Below are positions 7,911 to 16,682 of a stretch of 64,000 nucleotides of DNA, one piece after another. Source of the stretch: Symsagittifera roscoffensis (taxonomy: Eukaryota). The notes under the pieces were generated by a model, which was given only the letters and a program-made list of their open reading frames with translations, ran no database searches and was not told the origin of the DNA. Every line of letters starts with the position of its first letter. Positions within the stretch are counted from its first letter, which is position 1. Made by a program: the position numbers and the translations under genes. The DNA lies in NCBI RefSeq assembly GCF_963678635.1, contig NC_087064.1, positions 32,745,028 to 32,809,027 on the forward strand, read 5' to 3'.

Positions 7911-9063
7911 ATTCAAATGTCTTGCTTGGCATGTTTGTCTAGAATTCCTATTTGATAAAAAACAGATATTATGAAAGTGTATGTAATGAAGATGGCGTGT
8001 TTAAGTGTTATCAAGCAGTGACCTTGGCGACAAGAGAATTTGATTGTTTGGCCGACAATTATTCAAAATATAAAAAAAATGGTTAAAAAACAAACCGGTG
8101 AAAAGACTTCATCTTCTTGCTCCTCCTCATCATCAGCTGCAAATGATAAACATTATAAAAAAAGATACAGGTCAAAAGTATCAGTATGTCCCGAAAAAGA
8201 ATGTGCTGAAAGTGGCGATGAAAACAATGCGGATGATGAATACTCGATTAATAAAAAATGTAGAGTTGCCTGAAACAGGAAAAAAAAACGTTTGAACAAT
8301 TTGATTAACCAGCAGAACGGTTGAAGCAATGTATGAGCAGTCACCTGAATTTTTTTAAAATTTCGAAAGAATTTTAAATTTTTTGTTCTAAACAACGAAC
8401 CCGACATCTCACAACTCCCTCTCAACACAAATTTTGCATTTGTAACCTACTCAACTCAGAACGAGTCTTGCACCCAACTGCTCGACAATGATCATCCCCA
8501 CATCCATGTTCTCGTCGAATTAACAAAAGATTGTGTTGACGTAGTGAACAAGCTGACCTCAACCACTTTCGTTGTACCTTGTCTACTCTCATCTTTCAAA
8601 CATCTAATTTTGGGTTGCAGTAAAATTCAGCTATCGGGATCTTTGATGGAAAAATTAAAATTTGCTGTCAACTTCAACAATTCTATTAACACTTCAACTG
8701 ACATTGGCGGTGCTCCTCTACGAAGAAGATTGCCACACGTTTGCTTCGCTTTACAAACTTGATCCATTCAAACTCAAACTGATTTAATCACTATTGTAAC
8801 AATTGAAAGCTTCATCAATATTTTGAATGGTGATAATGCTGTCGAGTTTTCTAAAATTATTGATATTATTTTGAGTGGATACGGTCGTTTAGAGATTGAT
8901 TCAAATACTTTGTTTGTTAAATTTATAATAAAAAAAATTAAATTCTGAAAACGTTTCCTAGAGCCTGAGATAACACCAGAGGCAAGTGTTCTAACAAAGA
9001 AAAAAGTAGTTCGGAAAAAAATTCAATTATAGATCATTATAGAAAATCATCAGTTTTTCAATT

Positions 9064-10553
9064 TTATAACATCATATGTTTAGCAAAGCGCATCATGTCG
9101 TGGTCGTTTAGTTTGAAACCTATAGGGAATTGGGATGAAATTATAACATGAGCAACATGAATATAATAAAGTCCACACAAGATCGAGTTAGCTGATTGGA
9201 TTGGCTTGTTCATCAGTATTTGGTGTCCTTCATGAATAGAATGTCTCATGTATTTGTAAACATGTGGATAATTGTGTATTCCTTGTCCAAGAGGATCTGC
9301 AATAAAAAAAATTTGACCGCCAGCTTGAGCGAATAGTAATCAGTGAGTTCCTGGCTGGTCTGAGTTGGATGCGTTCACTATCATAAAAGTATTGTCACGT
9401 TTCACTTTTGTTCTAAATGCTAAGTTAGCTGGAGAAATGCCTCTAAATCGATGTTTCAAATGCTTGCATTGGTTAAAAAGCTCTGTAATCTGCAAATTGT
9501 CCATTTTTTTCAGATTCAGTTCATTAGAGTGTTTTGAGCTTTTTTTCTATCGGAACGCACGTAAACTGTTGATGCACGCTCTCCCATGAAAAGTAACTCT
9601 ACATTTTCCCCCAGTGGTGCATTTAACTTCAGTTCTACTGAAATGGTGCAATTAGTCAATTCAGGATGAATAAAGTCATGTGAAGCCTCCTGAGTAGATG
9701 TGAGATCAAATGCCATAATATAATGATTGTGATAATTAGCCAAACTGATTCCATGACTATTGTTAAAAACAAAGTCTAGAGCTTCTAATGTGTTATAGTA
9801 TATTCTTTAGTTATTAGTCGTTGACACAGGAGTACCTGCAATGGGTCGACCGTTTCGGTAAACAATGATTTCATTCAGCTGAAACTTTTGACAATGAAAC
9901 GGGTTTGTTCGGTTAGTACCCAGGTATGCTGTATTTGAGCTCATTGCCAAAATCATTCGACGAACTGGCTCTTTGGCAAAAAAGTCTTCTTGTCGCCAGC
10001 TTTGCACACCAGTTGTGGCCAAAAAAGTTCTTGGTAAAACTTAAATATAATTGTATATTGCGGGTGTTTTCAGCAGAGTTTTTACTATCGACGATAGCAC
10101 AAAATCGCTTACTGTCATTTTGCGCACATATAGGTTAGCTTCAGTGATTTCAACTCGGTAATGTTTATCTCTATGCTCGGACATGATAACAAAGTCATTA
10201 GCAAATCGTCTCAGAGAAAGTCTTATTGTAACACCGTTGATAAGATGTTTGTCACTTGATAAAAAATCACAAGAAATTTTACCAAATAGACGGAATTCGC
10301 TTGACGCAGCTACGATTCGCTTACGTTCCGCAACATCTTCAGCTCGCCCATTAGCACCATCAATACCTGATGGAATATCTTCATAATAATAACCTTGACA
10401 AGCAAGCCATGTTTTCTTTGCATCATTACCATGTGAAAATTCGGTCTCAATGAAACTCTTATGGGCAAAATTGGCATTAGTTGTTGAAATTTTTTCTCCA
10501 TTCAGAGACATTGTGCTTTCGGAAAATAAAGATGACAGTGGATTTATAACCAA
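9064..10553 (-). pseudogene. String of four co-linear minus-strand ORF fragments (170, 71, 75 and 61 aa). These are likely one disrupted structural gene (candidate capsid) of the Polinton-like element.
   Basis: Adjacent ORFs 10041..10553, 9807..10022, 9516..9743 and 9064..9249 lie on the same strand with short gaps. Together they span about 500 codons. No motif was recognised, so the function is only a guess. Confidence 0.25.
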
Positions 10554-10811
10554 TTATGGGGTGTCTCGTTGTGCTGCCTCAGTAGCATGAGTTCGCAGTA
10601 CATTACCATTATTTTGAACAATACGTGCTACAATCTCCAAGCGAGTTCATTGAAGATCGATAAAGTTGTTTCTATCTCCTAAAACTTCAAATTCGAGCAT
10701 GGGACCATCAGGTGAATAAGATGGACCAATTTTTGAGTGAATGCATTTTCAAATGTAACGAATAGAGGAAGAAAATCTAATGAGCTATGAGTTGCTTCAG
10801 TTGGTAATAAA

Positions 10812-14061: not shown

Positions 14062-14812
14062 TTAACTTGGATTCAATTGTACCATGTGTTGCAGAATGGA
14101 TGATTTTTCGCGTTCATTTGTGATGGGTGATGCCTTATCTAATGGTAAATAGAAAATTGACGGACCAGGTGTTATTATGTTTGAACAGTATCTCAGACAG
14201 TCTGATGTTCGGGGATCTAAGTCTATTAATAGATGTCCAAAGCTGTTTTTGGTAGCCAGTTCATACGATTGTCGTAAAAATTTAGGTGCATTAAGTTGTC
14301 TTCCGAGGTGATCAAGTTGCTGAATATCACGAGATGATTTGAATAAAATTATGTGAGATGTGTTCAAATCAATAGTTCGTGACCATCGACTTTGTTGGAA
14401 TGAATTATGTTTGACATAAATAACATCTAAGCCTTTGTGTCTTCCTGCTGTTGCTAGTTTAACGAATTCTTCATCATTGTATATTTCTTCGCATGAGTCA
14501 TCAAACACTAACAGAATGTTTTCAATGTTTCTCAAACGATCGAATCCATCAAATTTGACAAATTCGATTTGAATTCTGCCAGCGTTCCTCGTCCCTAAGT
14601 ATAGGTTGAATATCTTTGTAAAAAAATAATACTCTTCCAAATTTTGGATAAAAAGTTCTCACTTTCAATAATTTGAAAATTAATTCTGTTTTTCCTGATC
14701 CCGAAGGTCCTACAACTGCCATAAACAGTCTTGTCGACATATCAATAATTCTATTTGTATCCTTGGGTTTGGTAACTCGTACCCAACTAAACCAGACAAT
14801 ATGGAAAACCAA
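14062..14812 (-). pseudogene. FtsK/HerA-superfamily (A32/IVa2-like) DNA-packaging ATPase, with a frameshift between the Walker A and Walker B parts.
   Basis: ORF 14549..14812 has the Walker A motif AVVGPSGSGKTELIFKLL. ORF 14062..14640 has the Walker B-like motif NILLVFDDSCEE and continues to KHNSF..SR. Confidence 0.55.
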
Positions 14813-16347
14813 ACTGATGTTTCTTCACAGCTTAGTTGCATCAAAGAAAGTTTATAGATACAAAAGCATAGTAAAATTAAAATTATAATAATTTGATACA
14901 TAAAAACTACTTCTGATCTGGGAACAGTGGCATCAAAACAAAATTTCCAAGATTTTTGTTCGGTGTTATTTCGATCATAAACAAAATCAGTAACTATATT
15001 TGCATCAGGCTCATCATCTGCTATTTCAGACATTCACGTTTTCAATTTTTTTTCTCTCTCTCTCTGACTATCTATCTATATCAACCGTTTCTTATTGAGG
15101 AAGAAAAATGTGTGGTTATGAAATTTATTATTTGATTTTCTGAACAGTAAAAAATCTCGTATCGATTATAACCAGTGTAAACATTAGTAGTATCATTTTC
15201 ATTGTCATACATTTCCACTACATAATTGGCTGGGACATTCTTAGTTTTCACATGATATATGATTTTCTTCACTGAGTTTTCTTGTACTAATTTCTGAACT
15301 TCCTCAGGTTAATCACTGCTGCTGAGGTCCATTTGAACTCCGGGCTGACATTTGGGTACTAAGACTAGCTTGGGAACTTAAACTCCTCGTTTACTGGCTA
15401 ACATTTTGAATAAACTTGAATCGTTGAAAGTAGATAAATTGGTCAATCACCGGGAAAAACCTTCTCAAAATAGTTAATTCCTCTTCATATGAAGTGATTT
15501 GTTCTTTTCGCTGCACCACTTGACCTCGGCAATCGATTCGTTCTGCTCTTGTTAATGATATTTTGATGTCACTCTCTGGATTCATCCAAGCACATAACAC
15601 TGAATTTGGAGATAGGGTCGTCTCCAGCTTCGCTAGTCTCTCGCTGTTGCTCATTTTTCAGCCAATAAAAAAACGCCTTGCTTTTCTTCAGGGCGCAGTG
15701 ATTCATGGAGTGGTTATGATGTGAAATAAATCTCACAGTCAAATTAATCTCGTGAATGATTTCCAAGTCCGTTGAAGTAACTCTACCTTTTTTCCAATTT
15801 CATTTTTATTTTTTTTCCAACACCTCGCGGACCTGCTGAATTTCAAGCCAGTGGAAGTGAAAGTGACCTTGCAGATACCACTTACTCAGTCCTATATCTC
15901 GGTGGTAGATATTTAGATAGATCACTGGAAGTTTTTGATATTTTGAAAATTTATCAAAACAAAGTCGAATCATTCGCTCCACCCCTTTCTCAATCATCAT
16001 AGAGTCAAAATCGAATGAGTAATTAAATCGGTTTTCATATGTAGCAATGATTACATCAATAGCCCTACCATTTTTCTGTTTTGTATAAACGCACCACGTT
16101 ATTTGTAAGAGCTCATTCAAATAAAACAGAGCTGTTTACAACTCTGCTAATATACTTCTGGTGCTTTATCTGCTATTTTTTTCCACCGTGATATGAAAAC
16201 TATATAACGGTCGTTAATACAACTGTTTTTTGATCGGGTACCAGTTGAGAAGACAGAGAAACTTAAATGCTCACTATCAATATCTTCAGTATGCCAATCT
16301 CGAATTAAAATCATTTTGCTCAATTCGTTATTCCATAATTTCAGCAT
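14710..16347 (-). other. Run of short co-oriented ORF fragments (14710..15033, 15081..15272, 15391..15654, 15569..15766, 15806..16120, 16147..16347) with no recognisable domains. They are probably further decayed genes of the same element.
   Basis: All lie on the minus strand and are contiguous with the ATPase. No motif was identified. Confidence 0.2.
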
Positions 16348-16682
16348 TATTTTTATTGTTCATTTATGTCATGACACCGGACTGTCAGCCGCTCTTCAAA
16401 CTTCGTGAGTGTTTCAGATTGCTAAGCGTTGGTTCAACAATAAAAGATGCATACGGAAAAGAAATGGTTTACAGCTACCAACGGTTTAAATATTTTTGGC
16501 TATAACTTTTACGTTAACTTTAATTCCACTCAAATATGAACGTTATAGTCTTGATCGAACGTTAACGCATGAAAATGCAGTCCCCAGACATACTTTTTTT
16601 ATTATATATCACAACAGCAGTGACTTATTATAATATAGTCATTTCATAGCACTTAGAATACAATACATGTAGTTTTATTTTC

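Follow-up and report, generated by a model that had tools for sequence, protein, structure and literature searches.

Does a run of broken viral genes in an animal genome represent a short element that never had a polymerase, or the remains of a larger one? This question is raised by a 64,000-nucleotide stretch of the Symsagittifera roscoffensis genome (contig NC_087064.1, positions 32,745,028 to 32,809,027; hereafter the window, whose own numbering is used throughout). A sequence-only reading of it had described an endogenised, decayed Polinton/Maverick-type element at 9060–16350, with a Ulp1-like protease, an integrase and a packaging ATPase, and without a visible protein-primed family-B polymerase (pPolB) gene; the element was taken to be either truncated or a member of a polymerase-less lineage. 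The motifs named in that reading and the open reading frames (ORFs) of interest are all encoded by the minus strand, in a region rich in both AT and transposons. We found that positions 16882 to 7985 of the minus strand (~8.9 kb) very probably represent what is left of a Maverick/Polinton (polintovirus-type) endogenous virus-like transposon: its 5′ half, cut short on the 3′ side and decayed by mutation.

Extent and decay of the window copy

Since the broken ORFs of the window gave almost nothing in Pfam and PHROG scans, intact orthologues from related loci were used instead. Loci were fetched around homologues of the capsid gene: L001, L005 and L006 from ENA ERZ25071366, L002 from ERZ25878734, and L003 and L004 from the acoel Convolutriloba macropyga. 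The family is highly repeated, with 90%-identity clusters of 49 to 461 member sequences, and its full-length members measure 15.7–18.3 kb with terminal inverted repeats (TIRs) of ~250 bp. The shared gene order comprises six small ORFs, the ATPase, an ORF of 101 amino acids (aa), the rve integrase, a 277–297-aa protein, a 138–141-aa basic protein, a 438-aa protein and a protease of ~150 aa, followed by opposite-strand ORFs (two in L001, L002 and L005, the first alone being matched in L004), a 214-aa ORF and finally a large ORF with C2H2 zinc fingers and polymerase motifs. This order is identical in L001, L002, L004 and L006, and likewise in L005 except that ORF1–6 are deleted; it is kept even at 65% capsid identity, in a C. 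macropyga copy.

Alignment with these relatives by blastn runs from 16126 (L002) or 15826 (L001) down to exactly 7985. Further upstream the terminus itself was recognised: the minus strand from 16882 reads AGTAGTAAGGTAATTCGCCGG...G-run, in which AGTAGTA, GTA and the G-run are invariant against the TIR starts of the relatives, and the terminal 20-mer (16863–16882) was found once in the window against a chance expectation of 0. Both ends are held by L005 (5612–21288), whose 252-nt TIRs are 94% identical with the ends AGTAGTATTG...CAATACTACT, and CGCAAT stands directly outside both of them as a perfect 6-bp target-site duplication (TSD). L005 thus has the ends by which Maverick/Polinton elements are recognised, namely (AGT)2/(ACT)2 or (AG)3/(CT)3 together with TIRs and a 6-bp TSD. 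In addition, the 5′ flank of L002 (3152–3390) matches L006 13518–13750 in reverse complement (240 nt, 87.5%), and the two loci combine into a composite element of ~18.3 kb in which pPolB lies between the TIRs. Vertebrate Mavericks were reported to carry a 5′-(AGT)2//(ACT)2-3′ end motif and 6-bp TSDs, with 96% of loci degraded (Barreat and Katzourakis, PMC8097293); the present family agrees with them in these ends and duplications, in TIRs of ~250 bp, in a length of 16–18 kb and in that most copies are degraded.

On the other side, the break at 7985 falls in non-coding sequence without a TIR-like end (three-way alignment), and the second terminus, pPolB and the 214-aa ORF were found nowhere in the 64-kb window (tblastn with the downstream proteins; terminus search). 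The absent 3′ half amounts to ~8.4 kb in L005 and there comprises the 214-aa ORF, the zinc-finger pPolB and the 3′ TIR. No TIR pair was detected within the window by an inverted-repeat search, as expected for a copy that keeps a single terminus. Judged by these alignments, the window copy runs from its true 5′ end at 16882 to the break at 7985, without a 3′ TIR. The limits first proposed were therefore too narrow on both sides, the element extending ~1 kb beyond the lower one, and the comparison with other copies that the sequence-only reading had suggested for finding TIRs recovered the 5′ terminus and no 3′ TIR.

The window copy still has its 5′ terminus and accessory ORFs, together with genes for the ATPase, integrase, penton, basic protein, capsid and protease (Table 1). 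Every gene but ORF6 contains frameshifts or in-frame stops, the integrase being the worst affected (tblastn against the nearest intact proteins). Both the gene set and this damage bear out the description as an endogenised, decayed Polinton/Maverick-type element, and the genes are damaged as that reading stated, with ORF6 alone still open. At the internal deletion, window 15739 corresponds to L002 4275 and window 15718 to L002 5054 (blastn); ORF2 was not found in the window by tblastn, and ORF3 was matched solely at residues 139–188. A search of 7000–18000 against Rfam gave no match.

Identity to the closest relatives, L001 and L005, changes stepwise, from 90.5% at 7985–11214 to 81% at 11215–13448 and 74% at 13864–15679, and the sharp step falls exactly on the boundary between the penton and basic-protein genes. 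These steps suggest recombination between Maverick subfamilies.

Table 1 Positions and condition of the element features in the window
Feature	Window positions	Strand	Condition and basis
5′ terminal region	16630..16882	-	element start at 16882 = AGTAGTAAGGTAATTCGCCG, then G-run; aligned to TIR starts of L005, L002 and L006
ORF1 (168 aa in L002)	15836..16347	-	one frameshift near 16140; frames -2/-1 at 49% and 64% identity to L002 ORF1 (tblastn)
Internal deletion junction	15575..15739	-	~780 bp gone (L002 4275–5054): ORF2 and N-terminal three quarters of ORF3
ORF3 C-terminal remnant	15575–15727	-	L002 ORF3 = 4634–5203
ORF4 (113 aa)	15316..15654	-	one in-frame stop; 75% identity to L002 ORF4; conserved in L004
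ORF5 (98 aa)	15138..15446	-	two in-frame stops; 60% identity to L002 ORF5
ORF6 (107 aa)	14713..15033	-	sole frame still open; 71% identity to L002 ORF6, no stops (tblastn); 59% to L004
Probable A32/FtsK-type packaging ATPase	14104..14824	-	one frameshift near 14580; two frames at 59% and 78% identity to L002 ATPase (tblastn)
ORF8 (101 aa)	13894..14115	-	two stops (tblastn)
rve (retroviral-type DDE) integrase (609 aa in L001)	11977..13731	-	at least 3 frame changes, many stops (tblastn)
Penton (minor capsid, single jelly-roll; 277–297 aa in relatives)	11213..11911	-	frameshifted
Small basic protein (138–141 aa)	10815..11214	-	one frameshift; 84–89% identity to L001 (tblastn)
Major capsid protein (MCP)	9519..10822	-	one frameshift, four in-frame stops
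Adenain-like (peptidase C5/Ulp1-type) cysteine protease	9067..9510	-	85% identity to L001 orthologue (tblastn)
First opposite-strand ORF (211–234 aa in relatives)	8352..8918	+	one stop; 86% identity to L001 11877–12512; conserved in L002 and L004
Second opposite-strand ORF (86 aa in L001, Ser-rich)	8018..8270	+	one frameshift; 80% identity to L001 12557–12817
Truncation point	7980..7990		similarity to full-length relatives stops at 7985 = L001 12850 / L005 12857 (blastn; three-way junction alignment)

Capsid proteins and the other hallmark genes

The frame-corrected ORF series at 10855–9519 matches intact 438-aa proteins with E = 2.6e-260 and 91% identity, and is therefore a feature far beyond chance. 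In any source the homologues are named only “uncharacterized protein F54H12.2-like” (C. macropyga) or “hypothetical protein”, and no paper mentioning “F54H12.2” was retrieved by a full-text literature search. Structure prediction, which had been proposed for these ORFs with a double jelly-roll capsid fold in mind, was carried out on a 438-aa orthologue with AlphaFold2 (58 aligned homologues) and gave a model with a predicted local distance difference test score (pLDDT) of 83.5 and a predicted TM-score of 0.83. In BFVD this model matched viral capsid proteins: the best match was a protein of Cotesia sesamiae bracovirus, followed by capsid proteins of Adintovirus, adomavirus (LO7), MELD-virus, virophages and giant viruses. 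The bracovirus protein (R9XLG5, Cotesia sesamiae Mombasa bracovirus; E = 2.5e-21) has 21% identity, the highest among the 50 matches listed, with a low global TM-score (0.39), and differs in its insect host lineage; in the literature it is traced to a Maverick inserted in the Cotesia bracovirus.

A 297-aa orthologue of the penton was modelled likewise (37 sequences, pLDDT 85.9), and the top seven fold matches were all penton proteins, among them fowl adenovirus penton (13.9), PBCV-1 P1 (13.3), mavirus penton (12.8) and Sputnik (10.7). It was only fold comparison that settled the capsid proteins; sequence searches of the PDB did not, being weak or uninformative for the capsid profile as well as for pPolB, the ATPase and the protease. 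As judged from these models, the window carries both capsid genes, a predicted double jelly-roll MCP and a predicted single jelly-roll penton. The suspicion that diverged capsid genes were hidden in motif-less ORF fragments on either side of the hallmark genes thus proved right for the downstream ORFs (9064–10553), while the upstream fragments (14710–16347) are conserved accessory ORFs without a family match. Vertebrate Mavericks have the block INT – minor capsid – PW – MCP – PRO (PMC8097293), and the present family shows the same block with a small protein in the third place; by position only, the small basic protein could be the counterpart of PW.

The protease call had relied on a DCG motif. 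The only DCG tripeptide lies at 11403–11411 in an ORF (11370–11777) that is the penton gene read out of frame past the frameshift; at this site ...SDYPVDISAGTQMMFIYLD... in the penton orthologue corresponds to ...SDCWNPNDVYLLGYNPLSDCG... in the window, and this candidate was rejected. The real protease gene is found ~2 kb further downstream, within the fragments that had been considered motif-less, and carries one in-frame stop right after the catalytic-type His (GTH, then the stop). Its L001 orthologue scored 23.6 bits with Pfam Peptidase_C5, above the cut-off of 21.3, and adenovirus proteases ranked best, weakly (E = 0.1), in the PDB sequence search.

The integrase call was upheld, and the ATPase call is supported by its motifs, its family match being borderline. 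The ATPase gene encodes a Walker A motif, GPSGSGKT, at 14687–14710 and a Walker B motif, LLVFDD, at 14497–14514 (minus strand); its N-terminal fragment in the window gave weak P-loop matches including Pox_A32 (Pfam), and a faint precomputed Pox_A32 match exists for the L004 orthologue. The integrase motif YLMVAVDCMSRY lies at 12565–12600 on the minus strand, and the Pfam rve family matched the window fragment with 26 bits and the L001 orthologue with 35.3 bits, above the cut-off of 32.6.

Taken together, the double jelly-roll MCP, the penton, the adenain-like protease and the rve integrase, a probable A32-type ATPase and, in the full-length relatives, pPolB are the genes of Maverick/Polinton elements (Polintoviricetes). 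Adintoviruses and MELD viruses, which are animal-associated exogenous Polinton relatives, have the same gene repertoire and were matched by the capsid model in BFVD with E = 5.6e-17 and 1.3e-14, respectively; the present element differs from them in that it is decayed and sits integrated between host and transposon DNA, its family being known here from integrated genomic copies. Polinton-like viruses mostly lack pPolB and the rve integrase (PMC11161782). Compared with these and with virophages such as mavirus, the family has both genes and is therefore assigned to bona fide Polintons rather than to Polinton-like viruses.

The missing polymerase and alternative readings

A tblastn search with the family's own pPolB, which had been proposed as a check, found no pPolB in the whole 64-kb window, in agreement with the earlier observation that no such ORF is visible. 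Beyond the point where the window homology ends, L005 and L001 are ~96% identical for a further 8 kb, and L002 aligns there too. A pPolB region lies 3′ of the protease in four loci (L001, L002, L004 and L006), and the alignment of L005 with L001 covers the same stretch. In L002, positions 16246–19987 contain a 347-aa C2H2 zinc-finger ORF and an 854-aa ORF, in whose translation the family-B exonuclease/polymerase motifs FDLES, HNLSNYD, DANNLYG, KLIVNSAFGKT and YSDTDS were read. Homologues of this protein include many PF03175 (DNA_pol_B_2) proteins from acoel, snake and spider genomes, and one of them (P0123), 55% identical to it over the full query length, scored 55.4 bits with PF03175 against a cut-off of 25.8. 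Given that the relatives encode pPolB beyond the position equivalent to 7985 and the window has none, the family is polymerase-encoding and the window copy is truncated, the first of the two options left by the sequence-only reading.

Several points weigh against a truncated Maverick. The TIR of the window copy is alignable over ~45 nt only, at 75% identity, and the copy, its 3′ end being gone, offers no 6-bp TSD for comparison. The best Pfam match of the L002 ATPase, Pox_A32, is borderline (22.1 bits, cut-off 22.8; E = 1.2e-4) and is accompanied by a weak match to Adeno_IVa2. The L002 pPolB itself gave no PF03175 match in the Pfam scan, so that its assignment rests on the motifs and the 55%-identical homologue. 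The whole family is known here from genomic sequence. Finally, the missing half was either deleted or may have been displaced by a large insertion or rearrangement to beyond the window start, >8 kb away.

We consider it improbable that the element is split in this way rather than shortened, with its polymerase half outside the 64-kb window and >8 kb beyond 7985. The window is certainly transposon-rich, with a long interspersed nuclear element (LINE) and two BEL/Pao-like elements recognised by eye, and positions 1–7984 are made up of short interspersed repeats, some of which are common to an unrelated part of L006; yet nothing in 1–7984 looks like a single large insert, as long ORFs are missing and the junction shows no terminal repeat, and no element sequence reappears elsewhere in the window.

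Even less likely, and in our view very improbable, is the second option of the earlier reading, a polymerase-less Polinton-like lineage of ~9 kb that would rely on host or helper replication and of which the window copy would be an essentially complete member. In its favour, the window copy has one genuine terminus, the full morphogenetic module and an integrase, and no pPolB was found in the window. However, the closest relatives run ~8 kb past the end point of the window copy, through a zinc-finger pPolB to a TIR with TSD, the gene order kept by the distant C. macropyga copy includes pPolB, and L005, the only relative with both termini in one locus, has the pPolB region between its TIRs. The window, moreover, has no second terminus, and its homology ends in non-coding sequence without a TIR-like end. 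A reading as clustered host genes or domesticated viral genes, for which the still open ORF6 might speak, has next to no probability, since all other genes are broken, the relatives are multi-copy with TIRs and TSD, the encoded proteins are those of a virus (capsid, penton, protease, integrase and a probable packaging ATPase), and an open ORF of 94–107 aa is unsurprising in a copy still 70–90% identical to intact relatives.

For the truncated Maverick that we favour, established knowledge of Mavericks suggests how intact members of the family would live. They are linear double-stranded DNA elements of ~16–18 kb and would integrate by means of the rve integrase, giving rise to the 6-bp target duplications, and their capsid would be filled by the A32/FtsK-type ATPase and matured by the adenain-like protease. 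Having lost the half with the polymerase as well as the terminal repeat on the 3′ side, the window copy is unable to replicate, integrate or be mobilised; it is a genomic fossil inside a transposon-rich part of an animal genome.

Accessory genes, related copies and surroundings

Neither Pfam nor PHROG gave a family match for the six 5′ ORFs, ORF8, the basic protein or the reverse ORFs. By eye, ORF6 encodes a small protein with a hydrophobic stretch resembling a membrane segment. In L002, ORF3 carries VVLDVEGF towards the N-terminus and NHCALKKTKVFYDW towards the C-terminus, which by eye are reminiscent of two motifs, ExoI (DxE) and ExoIII (HxAxxD-like), found in DEDD-type 3′-5′ exonucleases; ORF3 had no match in Pfam or PHROG. 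At the junction of ORF8 and the integrase gene, a perfect 42-nt inverted repeat (13729–13770 / 13847–13888) is flanked by a 38-nt arm pair at 89% (within 13702–13888), and residues 69–100 of ORF8 were found on the plus strand at 13704–13799 (tblastn). The stretch 13702–13888 is a local duplication, in inverted orientation, of the part of ORF8 that encodes the C-terminus.

Rearrangements were also observed in the related copies. In the TIR- and TSD-bounded copy of L005, the whole ORF1–6 block is deleted and the ATPase gene stands almost directly after the 5′ TIR (L005 5612–5950). In L001 (3841–4183), an upstream partial Maverick is joined in the middle of the basic-protein gene (L001 4086) to the 5′ ORF region (L001 4090–4183 = window 15826–15733), a junction suggestive of a tandem dimer with a deletion or of recombination between two copies. 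In L002, an internal inverted repeat of 119 nt at 96% (11856–11974 / 15439–15557; also in L006) flanks a 3.5-kb segment with the reverse-strand ORFs and the 214-aa ORF, and could mark an invertible or acquired cargo segment. This repeat of the L002/L006 subfamily is absent from L005 and L004, and a nested element, which was considered for it, was dropped on that account.

The surroundings of the window copy are rich in other repeats. About 630 bp outside the Maverick 5′ end starts a 468-aa open ORF (17517–18923, plus strand) with ~20 tandem repeats of GGLFGAPSQPSSGARLFGGPPPPP, FG- and Pro-rich and with a guanine–cytosine (GC) content of ~50%, which could be either a host gene or an array of repeats. 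An intact 1157-aa ORF at 27271–30744 (minus strand), located in a GC-rich island with strong GC skew, resembles by eye the endonuclease and reverse transcriptase of a non-LTR (long terminal repeat) retrotransposon of the LINE type. Two near-identical polyprotein regions on the minus strand (47167–53058 and 55125–59362), with ORFs of 1237 aa and 946 aa and an integrase-like ORF, resemble by eye BEL/Pao- or Gypsy-type LTR retrotransposons, and one of them appears rearranged or truncated. Short interspersed repeats at 1660–1846, 2504–2814 and 5113–5406, upstream of the truncation point, match L006 16988–17711, outside its Maverick, at 75–86%; thus the window genome shares other repeat families with ERZ25071366.

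The organisation of the family differs from that of vertebrate Mavericks in several respects. Those have two convergent modules, whereas here the ATPase gene lies upstream of the integrase gene on the same strand, pPolB with an N-terminal C2H2 zinc finger stands at the far 3′ end, again on the same strand, and six small conserved 5′ ORFs and two reverse ORFs are present; the window copy has the 5′ half only. A literature search on acoels and Polintons retrieved nothing relevant. The family might represent a distinct animal Maverick lineage, with its core genes on one strand, a zinc-finger-fused pPolB, and a 5′ ORF block and reverse ORFs without detectable homologues, some of which may have new replication-accessory or host-interaction functions; in that case the widespread name “F54H12.2-like” would merit replacement by Maverick MCP. 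We put this forward as a speculation that is rather unlikely to hold.

Such loci are common and well described, and no new biological question is opened by the one reported here. The result is useful for masking and annotating loci of this kind and matters little beyond annotation. For annotation itself, the “uncharacterized protein F54H12.2-like” entries (NCBI) in animal genomes correspond, on the predicted fold, to the Maverick double jelly-roll MCP.

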